In this document: in pieces, positions 16,036 through 46,846 of the stretch | How the letters are laid out: each line of letters begins with the position of its first letter | Numbering within the stretch: the stretch's first letter is position 1 | DNA from: an uncultured Candidatus Saccharibacteria bacterium | Lineage (GTDB): Bacteria > Patescibacteriota > Minisyncoccia > Phycocordibacterales > PALSA-1337 | NCBI GenBank assembly: GCA_964558375.1 | Contig: CAZLCD010000001.1 | Coordinates: forward strand, 131,406 to 195,405 | DNA: 64,000 bases | Reading direction: 5' to 3' | Notes under the pieces: model-generated | What the model was told of the DNA's origin: nothing | The model's database searches: none | The model's input: only the letters and a program-made list of their open reading frames with translations | Position numbers and translations under genes: made by a program

Positions 16036-17730
16036 ATGAAAAACTATAAAATCCGAGAAAAAATTAATGGTGATTTCATTGATCATCTTCTTTTCTATCG
16101 CAATATAAAGACTCCAGAAGCAAAGCAAGCTTTCTTAAATCCAAATTATGACGAACATATCCTCGATCCATTTTTATTGAAAGATGCAGAAAAATCAGCC
16201 AAAAGAATAGTCGAAGCTATAGAAAAAAGTGAAAAAATAGTGATATATAGTGACTATGATGCCGACGGTATACCTGCCGGGGTTATCTTCCATGACTTCT
16301 TTAAAAGGATCGGTTTTAAAAATTTTATAAATTATATTCCACATAGGCATGATGAAGGCTTTGGTCTAAACACTGACGCTATAGATCAATTTGTGAAAGA
16401 TAAAGTGGATCTTCTGATTACTCTTGATTGTGGAATTTCTGATATTGAAGCTGTAAAATTGGCAAAAGAAAATAAAATAGACGTAATCATTACAGATCAT
16501 CATGAGCCTCATGAGATTTTGCCAGACGCCTTTGCTATCGTTGATCATAAGCAGAAAGATTGCAATTATCCTGAAAAGATCCTTTGCGGTTCTGGTGTTG
16601 GATTCAAATTGATTCAAGCTGTACTTAAGGTCAAAAGATTTGATATGAAAGAAGGTCAAGAAAAATGGCTACTTGATATGGTAGGTATCGCTACACTTTC
16701 GGATATGGTTCCTTTGACGGGGGAGAATAGGGCTCTGGCACACTTTGGTTTGCGGGTTTTAAAGATCAGTCCACGTAAAGGTTTGATGAGACTTCTAAAT
16801 CATTTAAAAATTCCTCAGAAACATTTAACCGAAGATGATATAGGCTTTATGATTACACCACGTATCAATGCGGCATCACGAATGGGAATACCTATGGATG
16901 CCTTCAAATTGCTTTCAACAGATGATGACAACGAAGCTCATACCTTTGTAGAGCATCTTGATAAAATAAATACAGAGAGAAAAAGTGTAGTAGCCGGCCT
17001 TGTAAAAGAAGTAAAGAAGATTATGAAAGAAAGAAATAAAGATAATACTCGCAATGTCATAGTGATGGGTAATCCAGATTGGAAGCCATCTTTACTTGGG
17101 CTTGTAGCCAACAATCTTGCGGAAGAGTTCGGTAAGCCAGCTTTTCTTTGGGGGCGCGATGGAGATGGTGTTATCAAAGGCTCATGTCGTTCGGGGGATA
17201 CGGTCAGTGTTGTTGAGATTATGAACAAAAGTAAAGACGGAACCTTTATCCAGTATGGTGGACACTTTGCTTCTGGAGGCTTCGTGGTTTCAAATGAAGC
17301 TATACATCATCTCGACGATCATCTCAATGCTTCTTTTGATATTTTAAAAAAAGAAAATCTTATCAAAGAACCAGACTTTATAGATATGCAAATTTCTTTG
17401 GAGGAGGTCAATTGGAATACTTATAGTGATGTAGAGAAGCTGGCGCCTTTCGGTGTTGGCAATCATAAACCGCTTTTTATTTTTAAAAATATTAAAATTG
17501 CTGGTATCAAAGAATTTGGCAAAGAAAAGAATCATCTTGAATTAAGTTTTAAAAAAGAAAATGGACAACCAGTAAATGCTATCGGATTTTTCATGTTAGC
17601 CGATAATTTTAAAAATAAAGATGGAGAGACTATTAAAATAGGGGATAGTATCGATCTTATTGCTACTATGGAAAAGTCGATGTTTAGAGGAAGGGCAGAG
17701 CTAAGGATGAGGATTGTTGATATAATATAG
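16036..17730 (+). CDS. recJ: Single-stranded-DNA-specific exonuclease RecJ
   Basis: DHH motifs (YSDYDADGI, IITDHHEP), DHHA1-like region (GGHxxAxG). Confidence 0.8.
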   Translation: MKNYKIREKINGDFIDHLLFYRNIKTPEAKQAFLNPNYDEHILDPFLLKDAEKSAKRIVEAIEKSEKIVIYSDYDADGIPAGVIFHDFFKRIGFKNFINYIPHRHDEGFGLNTDAIDQFVKDKVDLLITLDCGISDIEAVKLAKENKIDVIITDHHEPHEILPDAFAIVDHKQKDCNYPEKILCGSGVGFKLIQAVLKVKRFDMKEGQEKWLLDMVGIATLSDMVPLTGENRALAHFGLRVLKISPRKGLMRLLNHLKIPQKHLTEDDIGFMITPRINAASRMGIPMDAFKLLSTDDDNEAHTFVEHLDKINTERKSVVAGLVKEVKKIMKERNKDNTRNVIVMGNPDWKPSLLGLVANNLAEEFGKPAFLWGRDGDGVIKGSCRSGDTVSVVEIMNKSKDGTFIQYGGHFASGGFVVSNEAIHHLDDHLNASFDILKKENLIKEPDFIDMQISLEEVNWNTYSDVEKLAPFGVGNHKPLFIFKNIKIAGIKEFGKEKNHLELSFKKENGQPVNAIGFFMLADNFKNKDGETIKIGDSIDLIATMEKSMFRGRAELRMRIVDII

Positions 17731-17733
17731 TTT

Positions 17734-18225
17734 ATGAATAATACAAATACAATAACAATCTTTACCGACGGTTCATCTCGTGGAAATCCTGGACGTGGAG
17801 GATGGGGTGCTATTGTTGTGTCTGGAAACGAAGTCAGAGAATTGGGTGGAAAGGAAGATCATACTACAAATAACAGAATGGAGCTTGTGGGGGCAATAGA
17901 GTCCTTAAAAAATGCTGATTCAAATTTACCTATCACCTTATATTCTGATTCTCAATACGTAATAAAAGGCATGACGGAATGGATAGCAGGGTGGCAAAAG
18001 AAAAACTGGATAAATTCTCAGAAAAAGCCGGTGATGAATCGAGATCTCTGGGAGAGTCTTCTTGAAGTTTCTTTGAATAAAAAAATAGAATGGAAATATA
18101 TAAAAGGTCATGCAGAAAATCCAGGCAACAATAGATGTGATGAGATTGCTACTTCATTTGCAGACGGAGAACCGACAAAACTATACGAAGGCTCCCTTGA
18201 CTCCTATCCCCATAAAGTTGTCTAA
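17734..18225 (+). CDS. rnhA: Ribonuclease HI
   Basis: TDGSSRGNPG...GWGA, NNRMEL, YSDSQYV, KGHAENPGNNRCDEIA. Confidence 0.85.
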   Translation: MNNTNTITIFTDGSSRGNPGRGGWGAIVVSGNEVRELGGKEDHTTNNRMELVGAIESLKNADSNLPITLYSDSQYVIKGMTEWIAGWQKKNWINSQKKPVMNRDLWESLLEVSLNKKIEWKYIKGHAENPGNNRCDEIATSFADGEPTKLYEGSLDSYPHKVV

Positions 18226-18293
18226 AGCAAATCTTTATCAAATCTTTATTATTTCTTTATCTTTTCTTAATGTCGGTTTGGTATGGTTGAGGG

Positions 18294-18785
18294 ATGATAA
18301 AAAGATTCAAAGAGTGGATAGTGCTCAAAGAAAAATTACATACAGTTTCCTATAATAAAACTCCTTATTTTAAGGAGGGAGAAATTTGGTGGTGTAGTAT
18401 AGGCGATAATGTTGGTAGTGAAATAAATGGCAAAAGTGGGTATTTCTCCAGACCAATTCTAGTTTTTAAAAAGTTCAACAAAAATTTATTTTTTGGAATA
18501 CCCTTAACTTCAAAACCAAAGATGGGTACATGGTTCGTGGGAATATCTTTTTTGAATAAGACACAGACTATTGTTTTAAGTCAGGCAAGAACTTTAGATG
18601 CAGCCAGAATTAAGGATTTAATCGGACAATGTGACGAGAGTGATTTTGAAAAGATAAAAGCTGGTTTTAGCCAGCTCTATCTAAATATTTCTCCCAATAA
18701 AGGGAGGTCGTGGGAAATCCCCAAAAATCTTCTCTTATATCTTAACAAAATAATTATACATGTCAAATCAAAATTCAAAATTTAA
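18294..18785 (+). CDS. MazF/PemK-family endoribonuclease toxin-like protein (no adjacent antitoxin seen)
   Basis: GEIWWCSIG..GSEING..RPILVF...GIPLTSKPK...VLSQARTLDAARI matches MazF/Kid core (GDIxxVDFDPTxGSEQxGxRPxVVxS...SQ). Confidence 0.6.
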   Translation: MIKRFKEWIVLKEKLHTVSYNKTPYFKEGEIWWCSIGDNVGSEINGKSGYFSRPILVFKKFNKNLFFGIPLTSKPKMGTWFVGISFLNKTQTIVLSQARTLDAARIKDLIGQCDESDFEKIKAGFSQLYLNISPNKGRSWEIPKNLLLYLNKIIIHVKSKFKI

Positions 18786-20142
18786 TTTTGTGATAGTTTC
18801 TATCCTAATATTAACCATCTCCCTCCGCTTATACTTCGCTCTCAATAATAACCATCGAGACGTCTTGGTTGAAAAATACTCGGGTAAAGTTTCTGAAGTT
18901 ACGGGTATTATTATCGATGAGCCCCTAACAAAAGATTTTACCAAGACCTTCACCGTAAAAACTGAAAGTATTATTGGCAATGATATCAATAACGATAGTG
19001 TAAATATAAATATCCGCGTTCAAACCGAAAGGTACTTGGATTATGAATATGGTCAGAAAATTCTTTTGAAAGGGAGGCTGTCGGCACCATTTAATTTTAA
19101 AAGTAATGGCGGCAGGACCTTTGATTATATCAATTTTCTTTTGAAAGACGGTATTTATTTTGAAATGAAAAAGCCCAGCATAGAAATTTTGGAAAGCGAG
19201 ACAGGAAGCATAGTTTCAAGAAATTTATTTAAAGTTAAACAAAAGTTTTTGAGAAATATAAAAAGAGTTTTGGGAGAACCACATGCTGCCTTGGCTGGAG
19301 GTCTTGTGGTGGGGGAGAAAAGTGCTTTGGGCAAAGATCTGCTTGAGGATTTTAGGTTGGTCGGACTCATACATATCATAGTTCTTTCTGGTTACAATAT
19401 AACCATCATTGCCGATTCTATAATGAAAATATTGTCTTTCTTACCCAGAACACTCGGTATTGTTACTGGAGGTTTTGGAATTGTAGCTTTCGGCATTCTT
19501 GTTGGTGGGGGAGCAACTGTTGTGCGCTCTTGCATCATGGCGGTGATCGCTCTATCAGGATCTCTCTTCCGTAAAGATTACAATGCGGGCAAAGCACTTT
19601 TTGTGGCTGGAGCTTTGATGTTAATCCAAAACCCTCTTATCCTTCTTTACGATCCTTCATTTCAACTTTCATTTCTAGCAACTATGGGACTTATTTTACT
19701 ATCTTCACCCATTGAAAATAAATTGAAATTCATCACAGAGAGGCTAGGCATGCGCTCTCTCATAGCCTCTACCTTTGCTACACAGATTTTTGTTTCGCCA
19801 TTTATTTTGCATATGATGGGACAACTTTCTTTGATAGGGGTGATCGTAAATATTTTGGTTTTACCGATTATCCCTCTAACCATGCTTTTTGTGGCACTGA
19901 CTGGTTTTGCTGGTTTTATTTCAAATACCCTGGCTTATATACCAGGGTATCTTTCTCATTTTCTATTGTCCTATGAACTTATGATTGTTAACCTTTTTGC
20001 AAAGGTGCCTTTTGCCTCGATCAATTTACCAAAGTTTTCTTTTTGGTTGGTAGTGGCCTTCTATGCTAGCTATTTTGTAGCTTCGATAAAGTTACCTTCA
20101 ACTTTCTCCCAATTCAAATTTAAAAAGAAATCTTCTACATAA
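18760..20142 (+). CDS. comEC: ComEC/Rec2 competence channel, membrane portion (DUF4131 + competence domain)
   Basis: N-terminal TM, OB-like region, ALAGGLVVGEKSALGKDLLEDFRLVGLIHIIVLSGYNI motif, multiple TM helices. Confidence 0.7.
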   Translation: MSNQNSKFNFVIVSILILTISLRLYFALNNNHRDVLVEKYSGKVSEVTGIIIDEPLTKDFTKTFTVKTESIIGNDINNDSVNINIRVQTERYLDYEYGQKILLKGRLSAPFNFKSNGGRTFDYINFLLKDGIYFEMKKPSIEILESETGSIVSRNLFKVKQKFLRNIKRVLGEPHAALAGGLVVGEKSALGKDLLEDFRLVGLIHIIVLSGYNITIIADSIMKILSFLPRTLGIVTGGFGIVAFGILVGGGATVVRSCIMAVIALSGSLFRKDYNAGKALFVAGALMLIQNPLILLYDPSFQLSFLATMGLILLSSPIENKLKFITERLGMRSLIASTFATQIFVSPFILHMMGQLSLIGVIVNILVLPIIPLTMLFVALTGFAGFISNTLAYIPGYLSHFLLSYELMIVNLFAKVPFASINLPKFSFWLVVAFYASYFVASIKLPSTFSQFKFKKKSST

Positions 20143-46460: not shown

Positions 46461-46787
46461 ATGAATCAAACACACATGTACATTATTTGTGTAGTGGTTG
46501 TTGTTCTGTTCGTCTGTTACAGACTGTACAGAAAATCAAAAAGAACTTGTCCATCTTGCGGTGGCTGGCTTCTTTACAGACGCAAGCACAATGTAGAAAA
46601 GTTCGGACTAGATGTTAATGGGTATACCATTAGGTGTACAACTGAAGGTACCTGTCACAATCCCCGATGTCTTTTTTACAACATTAGTTTTCCAGAACTT
46701 GGCTCCTACTGCAAATTCATTAGTTATTGTAAGTGGTGGCCACCGTCAAATATATTAAGACACATTCGCTTTCGTAAATTTTTGTAG
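46461..46787 (+). CDS. Membrane-anchored zinc-ribbon-like Cys-rich protein
   Basis: TM then CPSCGG...C..C pairs. Confidence 0.35.
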   Translation: MNQTHMYIICVVVVVLFVCYRLYRKSKRTCPSCGGWLLYRRKHNVEKFGLDVNGYTIRCTTEGTCHNPRCLFYNISFPELGSYCKFISYCKWWPPSNILRHIRFRKFL

Positions 46788-46814
46788 TCGCACACCCTCC
46801 CGCTTCGGCCGGAG

Positions 46815-46846
46815 GGAATTTTTTTATTATTTTTCTTCCATTTATC
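46815..46846 (+). terminator. Rho-independent terminator
   Basis: CCCTCC-GC-TTCG-GC-GGAGGG stem with TTCG tetraloop then T7. Confidence 0.7.

Follow-up and report, generated by a model that had tools for sequence, protein, structure and literature searches.

Endoribonucleases with a Kid/MazF-like fold are paired with and inhibited by RNA in the type III toxin-antitoxin systems ToxIN, CptIN and TenpIN, the antitoxins of which are encoded as tandem repeat arrays upstream of the toxin gene on the same strand and are processed by the toxin. The CjpT/CjrA system was reportedly presented by Shen et al. in 2016 (Mol Microbiol 101:909). Two further papers place CjrA on the plasmid pVir (strain 81-176) and describe it as the antisense RNA antitoxin, validated by experiment, of a type I system (PMC10470494, PMC7826846). 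Moreover, the Bacillus subtilis pairs txpA/RatA, bsrG/SR4 and yonT/SR6 represent convergent type I systems overlapping at their 3' ends, in which the RNA duplex is cleaved by RNase III (PMC6562991). For E. coli mazEF, an antisense RNA (aMEF) was described, the promoter of which is non-canonical; it enhances the expression of mazEF and occurs alongside MazE (PMC8749433). Furthermore, comparative genomics indicated that over half of the toxin-family genes appear solo (PMC2701414). Here, a MazF/PemK-family toxin gene (positions 18294..18785, plus strand) located on a 64,000-nucleotide (nt) stretch of DNA from an uncultured Candidatus Saccharibacteria bacterium (contig CAZLCD010000001.1; the whole stretch is referred to as the window) was analyzed, for which an initial annotation had suggested an apparently orphan toxin. 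The best reading of the results is that this gene represents one half of a predicted RNA-controlled MazF module related to types I and III and possibly to CjpT/CjrA.

A homolog search retrieved 177 proteins, almost all of them approximately 130 amino acids in length, originating from Nomurabacteria, Paceibacterota, Saccharibacteria, Taylorbacteria and similar groups, and 80 of the corresponding genomic loci, nearly all from Patescibacteria, were fetched (individual loci are numbered with the prefix L below). On the antisense strand at the 3' ends of the toxin genes, a convergent unit consisting of a promoter, two hairpins (H1 and H2) and a U-tail was recognized by eye in approximately 78 loci. 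This unit features the promoter TTGACA-N16-18-TGnTATAAT, followed approximately 11 nt further on by H1 (AUAUU-YGGG-loop-CCCR), a short linker, the GC-rich and variable H2 and a U-run, and is predicted to represent a discrete small-RNA gene of approximately 55 nt that is convergent with the toxin gene. An antisense promoter matching at least 10 of 12 consensus positions is present in 86% of the loci versus 0.3% of random control positions, and the distance between the -10 box and H1 is exactly 11 nt in 68 of 78 loci. In addition, folding is more favourable for the transcript of the antisense strand than for its complement (p = 0.009).

Pairing within H1 is nearly complete, with 99.3-99.4% of the cells being paired (99.3% in a 73-sequence alignment), and three of its four pairs show compensatory changes (CG38/UA33, GC65/AU8 and GC68/CG5). 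In the controls, 38-62% were paired when the partners were slid, and none of 500 shuffles reached the observed value; the H1 helix was also recovered independently by RNAalifold. For H2, all five modelled pairs covary across the family in an alignment based on the covariance model, including many U-G pairs. Saccharibacteria, Paceibacteria, Nomurabacteria and others share conserved sequences for H1 and for the single-stranded regions flanking it, and H2 is free to vary. A closing helix formed by 5' AUAUU and 3' AAUAU is paired in 74% of cases with one covarying pair and is thus not established. No family for this RNA was found in Rfam 15, the pemK RNA motif RF02913 included, when window positions 17500-19500 (E ≤ 10) and eight homologous loci (E ≤ 1) were searched. 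At L017 (2740-2818), a near-perfect 79-nt inverted repeat matched several microRNA-precursor models (mir-3156, 48.5 bits); as a long bacterial hairpin, it surely resembles these precursors by chance.

The covariance model of the RNA, termed R1, was matched in every one of the 83 sources, five non-seed loci included, in each case opposite the toxin gene and at the 3' end of the latter. The RNA extends with its 3' end over the stop-codon region in 69 of 83 loci, and read-through of the RNA by the toxin open reading frame (ORF) was noted for 13 loci. Among all toxin genes examined, none lacking the RNA was found: the single copy without an R1 match is accompanied by a diverged RNA featuring another compensatory H1 variant. 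Extra R1 matches in the fetched loci point in the same direction, since five of the six abut further, sometimes degraded, MazF-like ORFs. Several toxin-RNA modules per contig or genome were observed (L007, L025, L028, L048 and L079; JAFTBP010000002, JAFRAS01 and JAFRJZ01), and frameshifted or truncated toxin copies still possess the RNA, e.g., at L025 (5330-5681 and 7549-7773) and L048 (5011-5244). The designation of the window gene as an orphan or solo toxin is therefore not supported: a conserved, convergent predicted small-RNA gene extends over its 3' end, and counterparts were seen with all homologs examined.

Metagenomes were also scanned starting from the RNA, using exact matches to the H1 18-mer and subsequent filtering by flanks and covariance model, which resulted in 12 genuine RNAs scoring 44-55 bits (at least 43.7 bits for true copies). 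Six of these are accompanied by a convergent toxin gene, five are located at a site of toxin deletion and one is an orphan. Each of the five RNAs adjoins an IMPase-like gene at its 3' end, where L035 carries the order IMPase-toxin-RNA; in the alignment to L035, the 434-bp toxin ORF is replaced by 8 bp and the RNA is kept at 96% identity. Orphan RNAs remaining after toxin loss keep their promoter intact. The occurrence of RNA-only remnants without toxin-only remnants corresponds to the asymmetry predicted by a toxin-antitoxin pair. Most matches to the 18-mer ATATTCGGGAATACCCGC were discarded as chance occurrences inside a coding sequence of an abundant human-gut organism (26.8 bits with the covariance model at L092, 6283-6300); approximately 55 other metagenome loci (L090-L166) share it with identical flanks in dozens of assemblies. 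Likewise, 17-mer matches on viral contigs turned out not to represent the RNA; for a second variant, none were obtained there. A further orphan RNA copy (41 bits) was noticed on the minus strand of L079 (2203-2254) between ORFs of 273 and 356 amino acids (L079 1139-3750), which by eye appear zeta-toxin/AAA-like and Fic-domain-like. Two tandem toxin-RNA modules adjoin, and this region may represent a toxin-antitoxin or defence island.

At the window locus, screening with R1 across all 64 kb resulted in one strong match at 18681-18731 on the minus strand (43.5 bits, E = 1.6e-8). This conserved core (18681..18731) comprises the 5' leader, H1, the linker, H2 and AAUAUUU. Hairpin H1 (UGGG-GAUUU-CCCA, 18711..18723, minus strand) is the most conserved element of the RNA, and H2 (CUCCC-UUUAUU-GGGAG, 18691..18706, minus strand) was obtained from both covariance model and fold. 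In most family members, H2 and its U-run constitute the terminator; the window H2 lacks the U-run. Instead, the terminator scan identified a terminator-like hairpin H3 (18657-18678) followed by a U-run (18648-18656), together spanning 18648..18678 on the minus strand within the codons for the conserved peptide KAGFSQLY. The consensus scan revealed a minus-strand sigma-70 promoter TTGACA-16-TGtTAAGAT (18766-18739; 10 of 12 positions plus TG), composed of the -35 hexamer TTGACA (18761..18766), which overlaps the start codon region of comEC at 18760, and the extended -10 element TGtTAAGAT (18739..18747).

Since the promoter places the start of the transcript at approximately 18732 and the terminator its end at approximately 18648, an antisense small RNA of approximately 85 nt (18648..18732, minus strand) is predicted, which lies entirely inside the toxin ORF. 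Its fold has a free energy of -28.3 kcal/mol (z -3.86), and none of 200 shuffles was as good. Promoter and H3 terminator hairpin are retained in the orthologs L084, L085 and L001 (61-69% protein identity), in which the -35 hexamer is invariant; in L085, both arms of H3 are changed and the encoded amino acids are altered too. A weak second R1 match in the window (46775-46825, plus strand; 18.3 bits, E = 0.095) immediately follows ORF 46461-46784. It probably represents an ordinary terminator and has no MazF-like gene nearby, the only one of the window being that at 18294.

The toxin gene itself was delimited exactly by the initial annotation (18294..18785; ATG start, 163 amino acids plus stop). 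A Pfam profile search confirmed its family assignment, with PF02452 (PemK_toxin) covering residues 27-127 of the protein at E = 3.7e-12 and 46.9 bits (curated cut-off 23.1 bits); NCBIfam and PADLOC contained no match to the 163-residue protein. The PemK/MazF core, i.e., codons 27-127 (18372..18674), is supported by the Pfam span, the alignment to B. subtilis EndoA and invariant columns. An AlphaFold2 model built on 89 homologs reached a mean predicted local distance difference test score (pLDDT) of 83.6. Its best structural matches are B. subtilis YdcE/MazF (1ne8 and 4mdx), S. aureus MazF, MoxT and Mycobacterium tuberculosis MazF-mt1 (E approximately 4e-7, target template modelling (TM) score 0.70-0.77 in Foldseek), and the top 50 matches in the PDB are MazF/MoxT/YdcE structures throughout (target TM 0.60-0.78).

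According to the alignment, the catalytic residues R25 and T48 of B. subtilis MazF correspond to R53 (codon 18450-18452) and T72/S73 (codons 18507-18512), respectively, the latter position being occupied by Thr or Ser in every homolog. R53, Q97, R99 and R105 are invariant among the 89 homologs, and Q97 and R99 are the equivalents of the MazF RNA-binding Gln and Arg. The ratio of nonsynonymous to synonymous substitution rates (dN/dS) of the gene is approximately 0.13 against orthologs, indicating purifying selection. Based on the MazF fold and the conserved active-site residues, the protein looks like a working MazF-family endoribonuclease with an intact predicted active site. Moreover, across the toxin ORFs from 82 loci, window positions 18294-18782 included, GUUA occurs at 0.6x the frequency expected from synonymous-codon shuffles (z -6.1); GUUAA (0.41x, z -5.2) and UUAAA are depleted as well, these z-scores being inflated because the homologous genes are not independent. 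In neighbouring genes, the three motifs are not depleted (z -0.8, -1.4 and -1.2, respectively), and the pattern may reflect self-avoidance of the toxin's own cleavage motif. AUAUU is not avoided in the toxin ORFs (z +0.4), which lends no support to AUAUU as cleavage motif.

Preceding the core, an N-terminal segment of 26 residues (MIKRFKEWIVLKEKLH, codons 1-26, 18294..18371) is specific to the subfamily, as the extension described initially turned out to be real and conserved family-wide. Its motif MIKRFxEWIxLKEKLH is shared by every homolog; K3, W8 and K12 do not vary, L15 and H16 are conserved in at least 90%, and a helix at residues 3-17 is predicted (pLDDT approximately 71-75 in the AlphaFold2 model). 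The sequence comparison thus marks the extension as a hallmark of the subfamily and no peculiarity of the window gene. An exhaustive profile search of 1.84 billion representatives resulted in 1,780 clusters (50% identity) at E ≤ 1e-10 and in just 2,916 at E ≤ 1e-3, indicating a sizeable subfamily that is well separated from ordinary MazF proteins.

The C-terminal tail of 36 residues (codons 128-163, 18675..18782) is clade-specific and common only to the closest relatives. It exists because the ORF in this clade reads through the antisense RNA gene, and its peptide GRSWEIPK corresponds to the reverse-strand translation of hairpin H1. For the tail, dN/dS is approximately 0.5, with dS values of 0.6-0.7 versus more than 1.8 or saturation in the core. 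One homolog (P0022, 243 amino acids) was noted to carry a PF07866 domain fused C-terminally after a VGNPKY read-through segment; read-through tails may occasionally capture extra domains in this way.

A protein antitoxin was searched for in the window as well as in the neighbourhoods of the homologs. None of the 37 free-standing small ORFs of the window matched an antitoxin of the MazE/AbrB/RHH/HTH type among the best 25 of 31 Pfam families; instead, ribosomal proteins, HIT, TspO and similar families were found. Clustering of all ORFs of at least 40 amino acids within 1.2 kb of the 80 homologs revealed no recurrent small protein, and the recurring neighbour families have housekeeping functions only, such as split transketolase halves, a YchF-like GTPase and a NUDIX-like protein. 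Among 99 small adjacent ORFs, two only appeared regulatory, namely those at L003 (XRE-like) and L005 (HxlR-like). Altogether, no protein antitoxin gene adjoining any of the approximately 90 homologous toxin genes was found. The small ORF 18110-18355, considered as antitoxin candidate, is regarded as spurious, since it lacks a credible family match and is cut to 34 amino acids in the syntenic ortholog L084. Furthermore, the 68-bp spacer between the end of rnhA at 18225 and the toxin gene (18226-18293) contains no coding sequence. The initial observations on the missing upstream antitoxin gene and on the short spacer were hence borne out.

In comparison to the type II systems MazEF, PemIK and Kid-Kis (B. 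subtilis EndoA-EndoAI, E. coli MazEF), the window protein shares the fold, the Pfam family and the catalytic and RNA-binding residues. It differs in that its family lacks a MazE/PemI-type antitoxin at approximately 90 loci, possesses an additional N-terminal helix and has a convergent small RNA as partner. With the 3'-overlapping type I systems of B. subtilis, the module has in common the convergent arrangement, the complementarity at the 3' end and a strong RNA promoter. However, the toxins of those systems are small hydrophobic membrane peptides as opposed to a MazF-fold RNase of 130-163 amino acids, and their RNAs are not conserved in sequence across phyla. Thus, of the features characterizing type I, the cis-encoded antisense RNA gene at the toxin 3' end is predicted in 83 of 83 sources, whereas the small hydrophobic toxin peptide, which is typical but not universal, is replaced by a 163-residue soluble MazF-fold protein.

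Resemblance to type III consists in an RNA rather than a protein partnering an RNase of Kid/MazF-like fold; in contrast to type III, the RNA is a single-copy, convergent two-hairpin molecule with its own promoter and terminator, and the protein belongs to PF02452 and not to ToxN. A repeat array of the type III kind was not recognized, the only candidate being an 11-bp repeat of 3.1 copies (18228-18268) that is absent from ortholog spacers. The Rfam motif RF02913 likewise denotes an RNA associated with pemK/mazF genes, but it is filed as a cis-regulatory element and was undetected here. The RNA aMEF is also tied to a mazF gene and differs from the window RNA in its stimulatory effect, its non-canonical promoter and the presence of MazE.

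Distant homologs possessing the N-terminal motif were identified by tblastn on C. jejuni plasmids of the pVir/pTet type, in CJIE4 prophages and on Helicobacter and Nitratiruptor plasmids. The pVir and Nitratiruptor plasmid loci each feature a convergent promoter with an extended -10 element, followed by hairpins and a U-run directed into the 3' end of the gene. R1 did not match the Campylobacter and Nitratiruptor loci, and the RNAs predicted there are therefore not homologous at a detectable level. The pVir homolog WP_011117588.1 (33% identity, N-terminal motif kept) resembles the window toxin, and its locus, which possibly corresponds to CjpT/CjrA, features a promoter (TTGATT-17-TGATATAAT) convergent with the gene as well as an antisense region with hairpins that extends into the 3' end of the gene. 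The Patescibacteria RNA represents a distinct and much more conserved structured family, and the window copy is chromosomal in a genome of the candidate phyla radiation. No paper tying Patescibacteria, MazF/PemK and an RNA partner together was found among the papers searched.

Considering the co-occurrence and covariation data, the RNA is probably the dedicated controller or antitoxin of the toxin. How it would act is a more tentative matter: control of an active MazF-family toxin through a type I-like antisense route is plausible, somewhat short of an even chance. According to this model, a strong promoter at the toxin 3' end would drive the small structured RNA convergently, and the toxin mRNA would run into the RNA gene. 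As no sense-strand terminator is located between the stop codon and the RNA gene, the toxin mRNA has to carry a stretch complementary to the RNA. The 3'-overlapping type I systems of B. subtilis are arranged in this manner, and antisense control is therefore favoured. The abundant antisense RNA of approximately 55-85 nt would pair with the mRNA 3' end, probably starting at the complementary H1/H2 loops, and the duplex would be cleaved by RNase III-type decay and/or expression would be blocked, keeping toxin synthesis low. Once the supply of RNA falls, the toxin would accumulate and cut cellular RNA.

Several points weigh against the antisense model. Promoter and terminator represent consensus matches, and transcript, toxicity and rescue are all predicted from sequence; it is from such features that we infer transcription of the RNA, toxicity of the protein, neutralisation of the toxin by the RNA and its route. 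Moreover, few known type I toxins are anything other than small hydrophobic peptides (PMC6562991), the presence of RNase III in this genome is assumed, and CjpT could not be confirmed as the pVir PemK-like homolog. The window copy also resides within the conserved housekeeping synteny recJ-rnhA-toxin-comEC-sod, which is unusual for an addiction module. Finally, although antisense pairing in cis does not require a conserved sequence, that of H1 and its flanks is nearly invariant across phylum-level lineages, which points to recognition by a protein.

The latter argument leads to a type III-like explanation, in which the structured RNA would bind the MazF-like protein and block its active site, the antisense overlap being secondary; the RNA might serve as pseudo-substrate and the basic N-terminal helix as RNA-binding adaptor. 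It would account for the conservation of H1 and its single-stranded flanks in sequence, not in structure alone, while H2 varies, and for a subfamily defined by an N-terminal helix (K3, W8, K12) that always co-occurs with an RNA partner. Inhibition by RNA is likewise known for the ToxN-type toxins, which have the Kid/MazF-like fold, and orphan RNAs are tolerated. However, apart from an unrelated 11-bp x3 repeat, the tandem-repeat array is absent, the RNA is single-copy and convergent in contrast to ToxI, CptI and TenpI, and the protein is a PF02452/MazF member and not ToxN. Furthermore, single-stranded AUAUU is not avoided in the toxin ORFs (z +0.4 as given above), and the Campylobacterota homologs retain the N-terminal helix although their RNA sequences are unrelated, so that this explanation is considered unlikely, if worth keeping in mind. 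Similarly doubtful is a hybrid type I/III class, in which a MazF RNase would have swapped its protein antitoxin for the conserved convergent RNA of approximately 55 nt acting both by direct binding (docking at the N-terminal helix) and by mRNA pairing, and which would be widespread and multi-copy in Patescibacteria and related to the plasmid and prophage modules of Campylobacterota.

Partnership of RNA and RNase outside a toxin-antitoxin relationship is improbable. It would imply a domesticated processing RNase with an RNA substrate or cofactor, or an RNA regulator sharing the bidirectional 3' region, and could draw on the stable housekeeping synteny and purifying selection of the window copy, on pairs situated between split transketolase halves in 7-8 loci and on orphan RNAs that outlast toxin loss with intact promoter as if independently useful. 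Yet copy-number variation, tandem paralogs and degraded or frameshifted copies are typical of toxin-antitoxin systems and not of housekeeping enzymes, the distribution is patchy and involves unrelated contexts, homologs reside on plasmids and prophages, and the toxin gene was never seen without the RNA. Very improbable, finally, are the explanations offered initially, i.e., a solo toxin, a domesticated RNase co-transcribed with rnhA or self-inhibition by the N-terminal extension, with the minus-strand motifs representing DNA operator palindromes or a shared terminator. These would agree with the missing protein antitoxin in window and homolog neighbourhoods, with the short spacer after rnhA and the co-directional recJ-rnhA-comEC genes, and with a covarying inverted repeat, which also fits a DNA-binding site; in addition, EzeT-type cis-antitoxin domains exist (PMC4826407). 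On the other hand, a near-consensus promoter at a fixed distance of 11 nt faces the hairpins and the U-run on that strand only (approximately 86% versus 0.3% of controls), which would not be anticipated for an operator or a terminator of the sense strand, and U-G pairs as well as the strand asymmetry of folding favour a minus-strand RNA. A domesticated RNase co-transcribed with rnhA is made less likely by the confinement of this adjacency to the closest relatives, the gene occurring elsewhere in unrelated contexts and often in multiple copies. Nothing suggests that the N-terminal extension replaces an antitoxin, since it is invariant subfamily-wide, Campylobacterota prophage copies and plasmid copies of the same layout included, and always co-occurs with a predicted RNA.

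If the RNA-controlled module is confirmed, an unannotated small RNA would represent the partner for one sizeable MazF subfamily, which bears on the open question of solo toxins, and annotation pipelines labelling these genes as orphan "type II toxin" would miss the second component. A type II-family toxin run by an RNA antitoxin is thus predicted on the basis of sequence data, and the strongly covarying RNA family is new relative to Rfam. Moreover, the toxin-RNA pair probably recurs in Patescibacteria genomes numbering in the hundreds, these genome-reduced bacteria carry such modules in multiple copies, and the system appears suited to separating antisense control from protein sequestration.

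Regarding the gene neighbourhood, the toxin gene is preceded by recJ and rnhA (17734-18225; PF00075, 149.7 bits), and comEC (18760-20142) overlaps its 3' end by 26 bp, all three genes being co-directional with it. The order recJ-rnhA-toxin-comEC-sod is kept in the closest relatives (69% and 63% identity), to which the rnhA adjacency is restricted; elsewhere, the toxin-RNA pair is found in unrelated contexts with patchy distribution. The spacer between rnhA and the toxin gene (18226..18293, 68 bp, plus strand) contains a -10-like element TGgTATGGT at 18279-18287, ending 6 nt before the ATG. A corresponding motif, TTTGrTAkrGTTG(AGGG) (window 18277-18293), is kept upstream of the gene in L084, L085 and L001 and ends 6 nt before the start codon. 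Owing to its resemblance to an extended -10 box, it is a possible toxin promoter of its own that would give rise to a leaderless mRNA; in a family-wide test, 42% of the toxin genes carried a -10-like box near the start, compared with 37% of the control ORFs. The tandem repeat in the same spacer (18228-18268) consists of approximately 3.1-3.4 copies of the 11-bp unit CAAATCTTTAT, which the spacers of L084 and L085 lack.

Downstream, comEC and the Fe/Mn superoxide dismutase gene are convergent with a 3' overlap of 73 bp (window 20070-20142), which is retained in the ortholog of 69% identity (L084 6763-6835). In other genomes, the toxin-RNA pair was observed beside or between apparent N- and C-terminal transketolase halves (L002, L003, L006, L018, L024, L030, L032 and L044); this assignment was made by reading the sequences and concerns 7-8 loci from Paceibacteria-type genomes.

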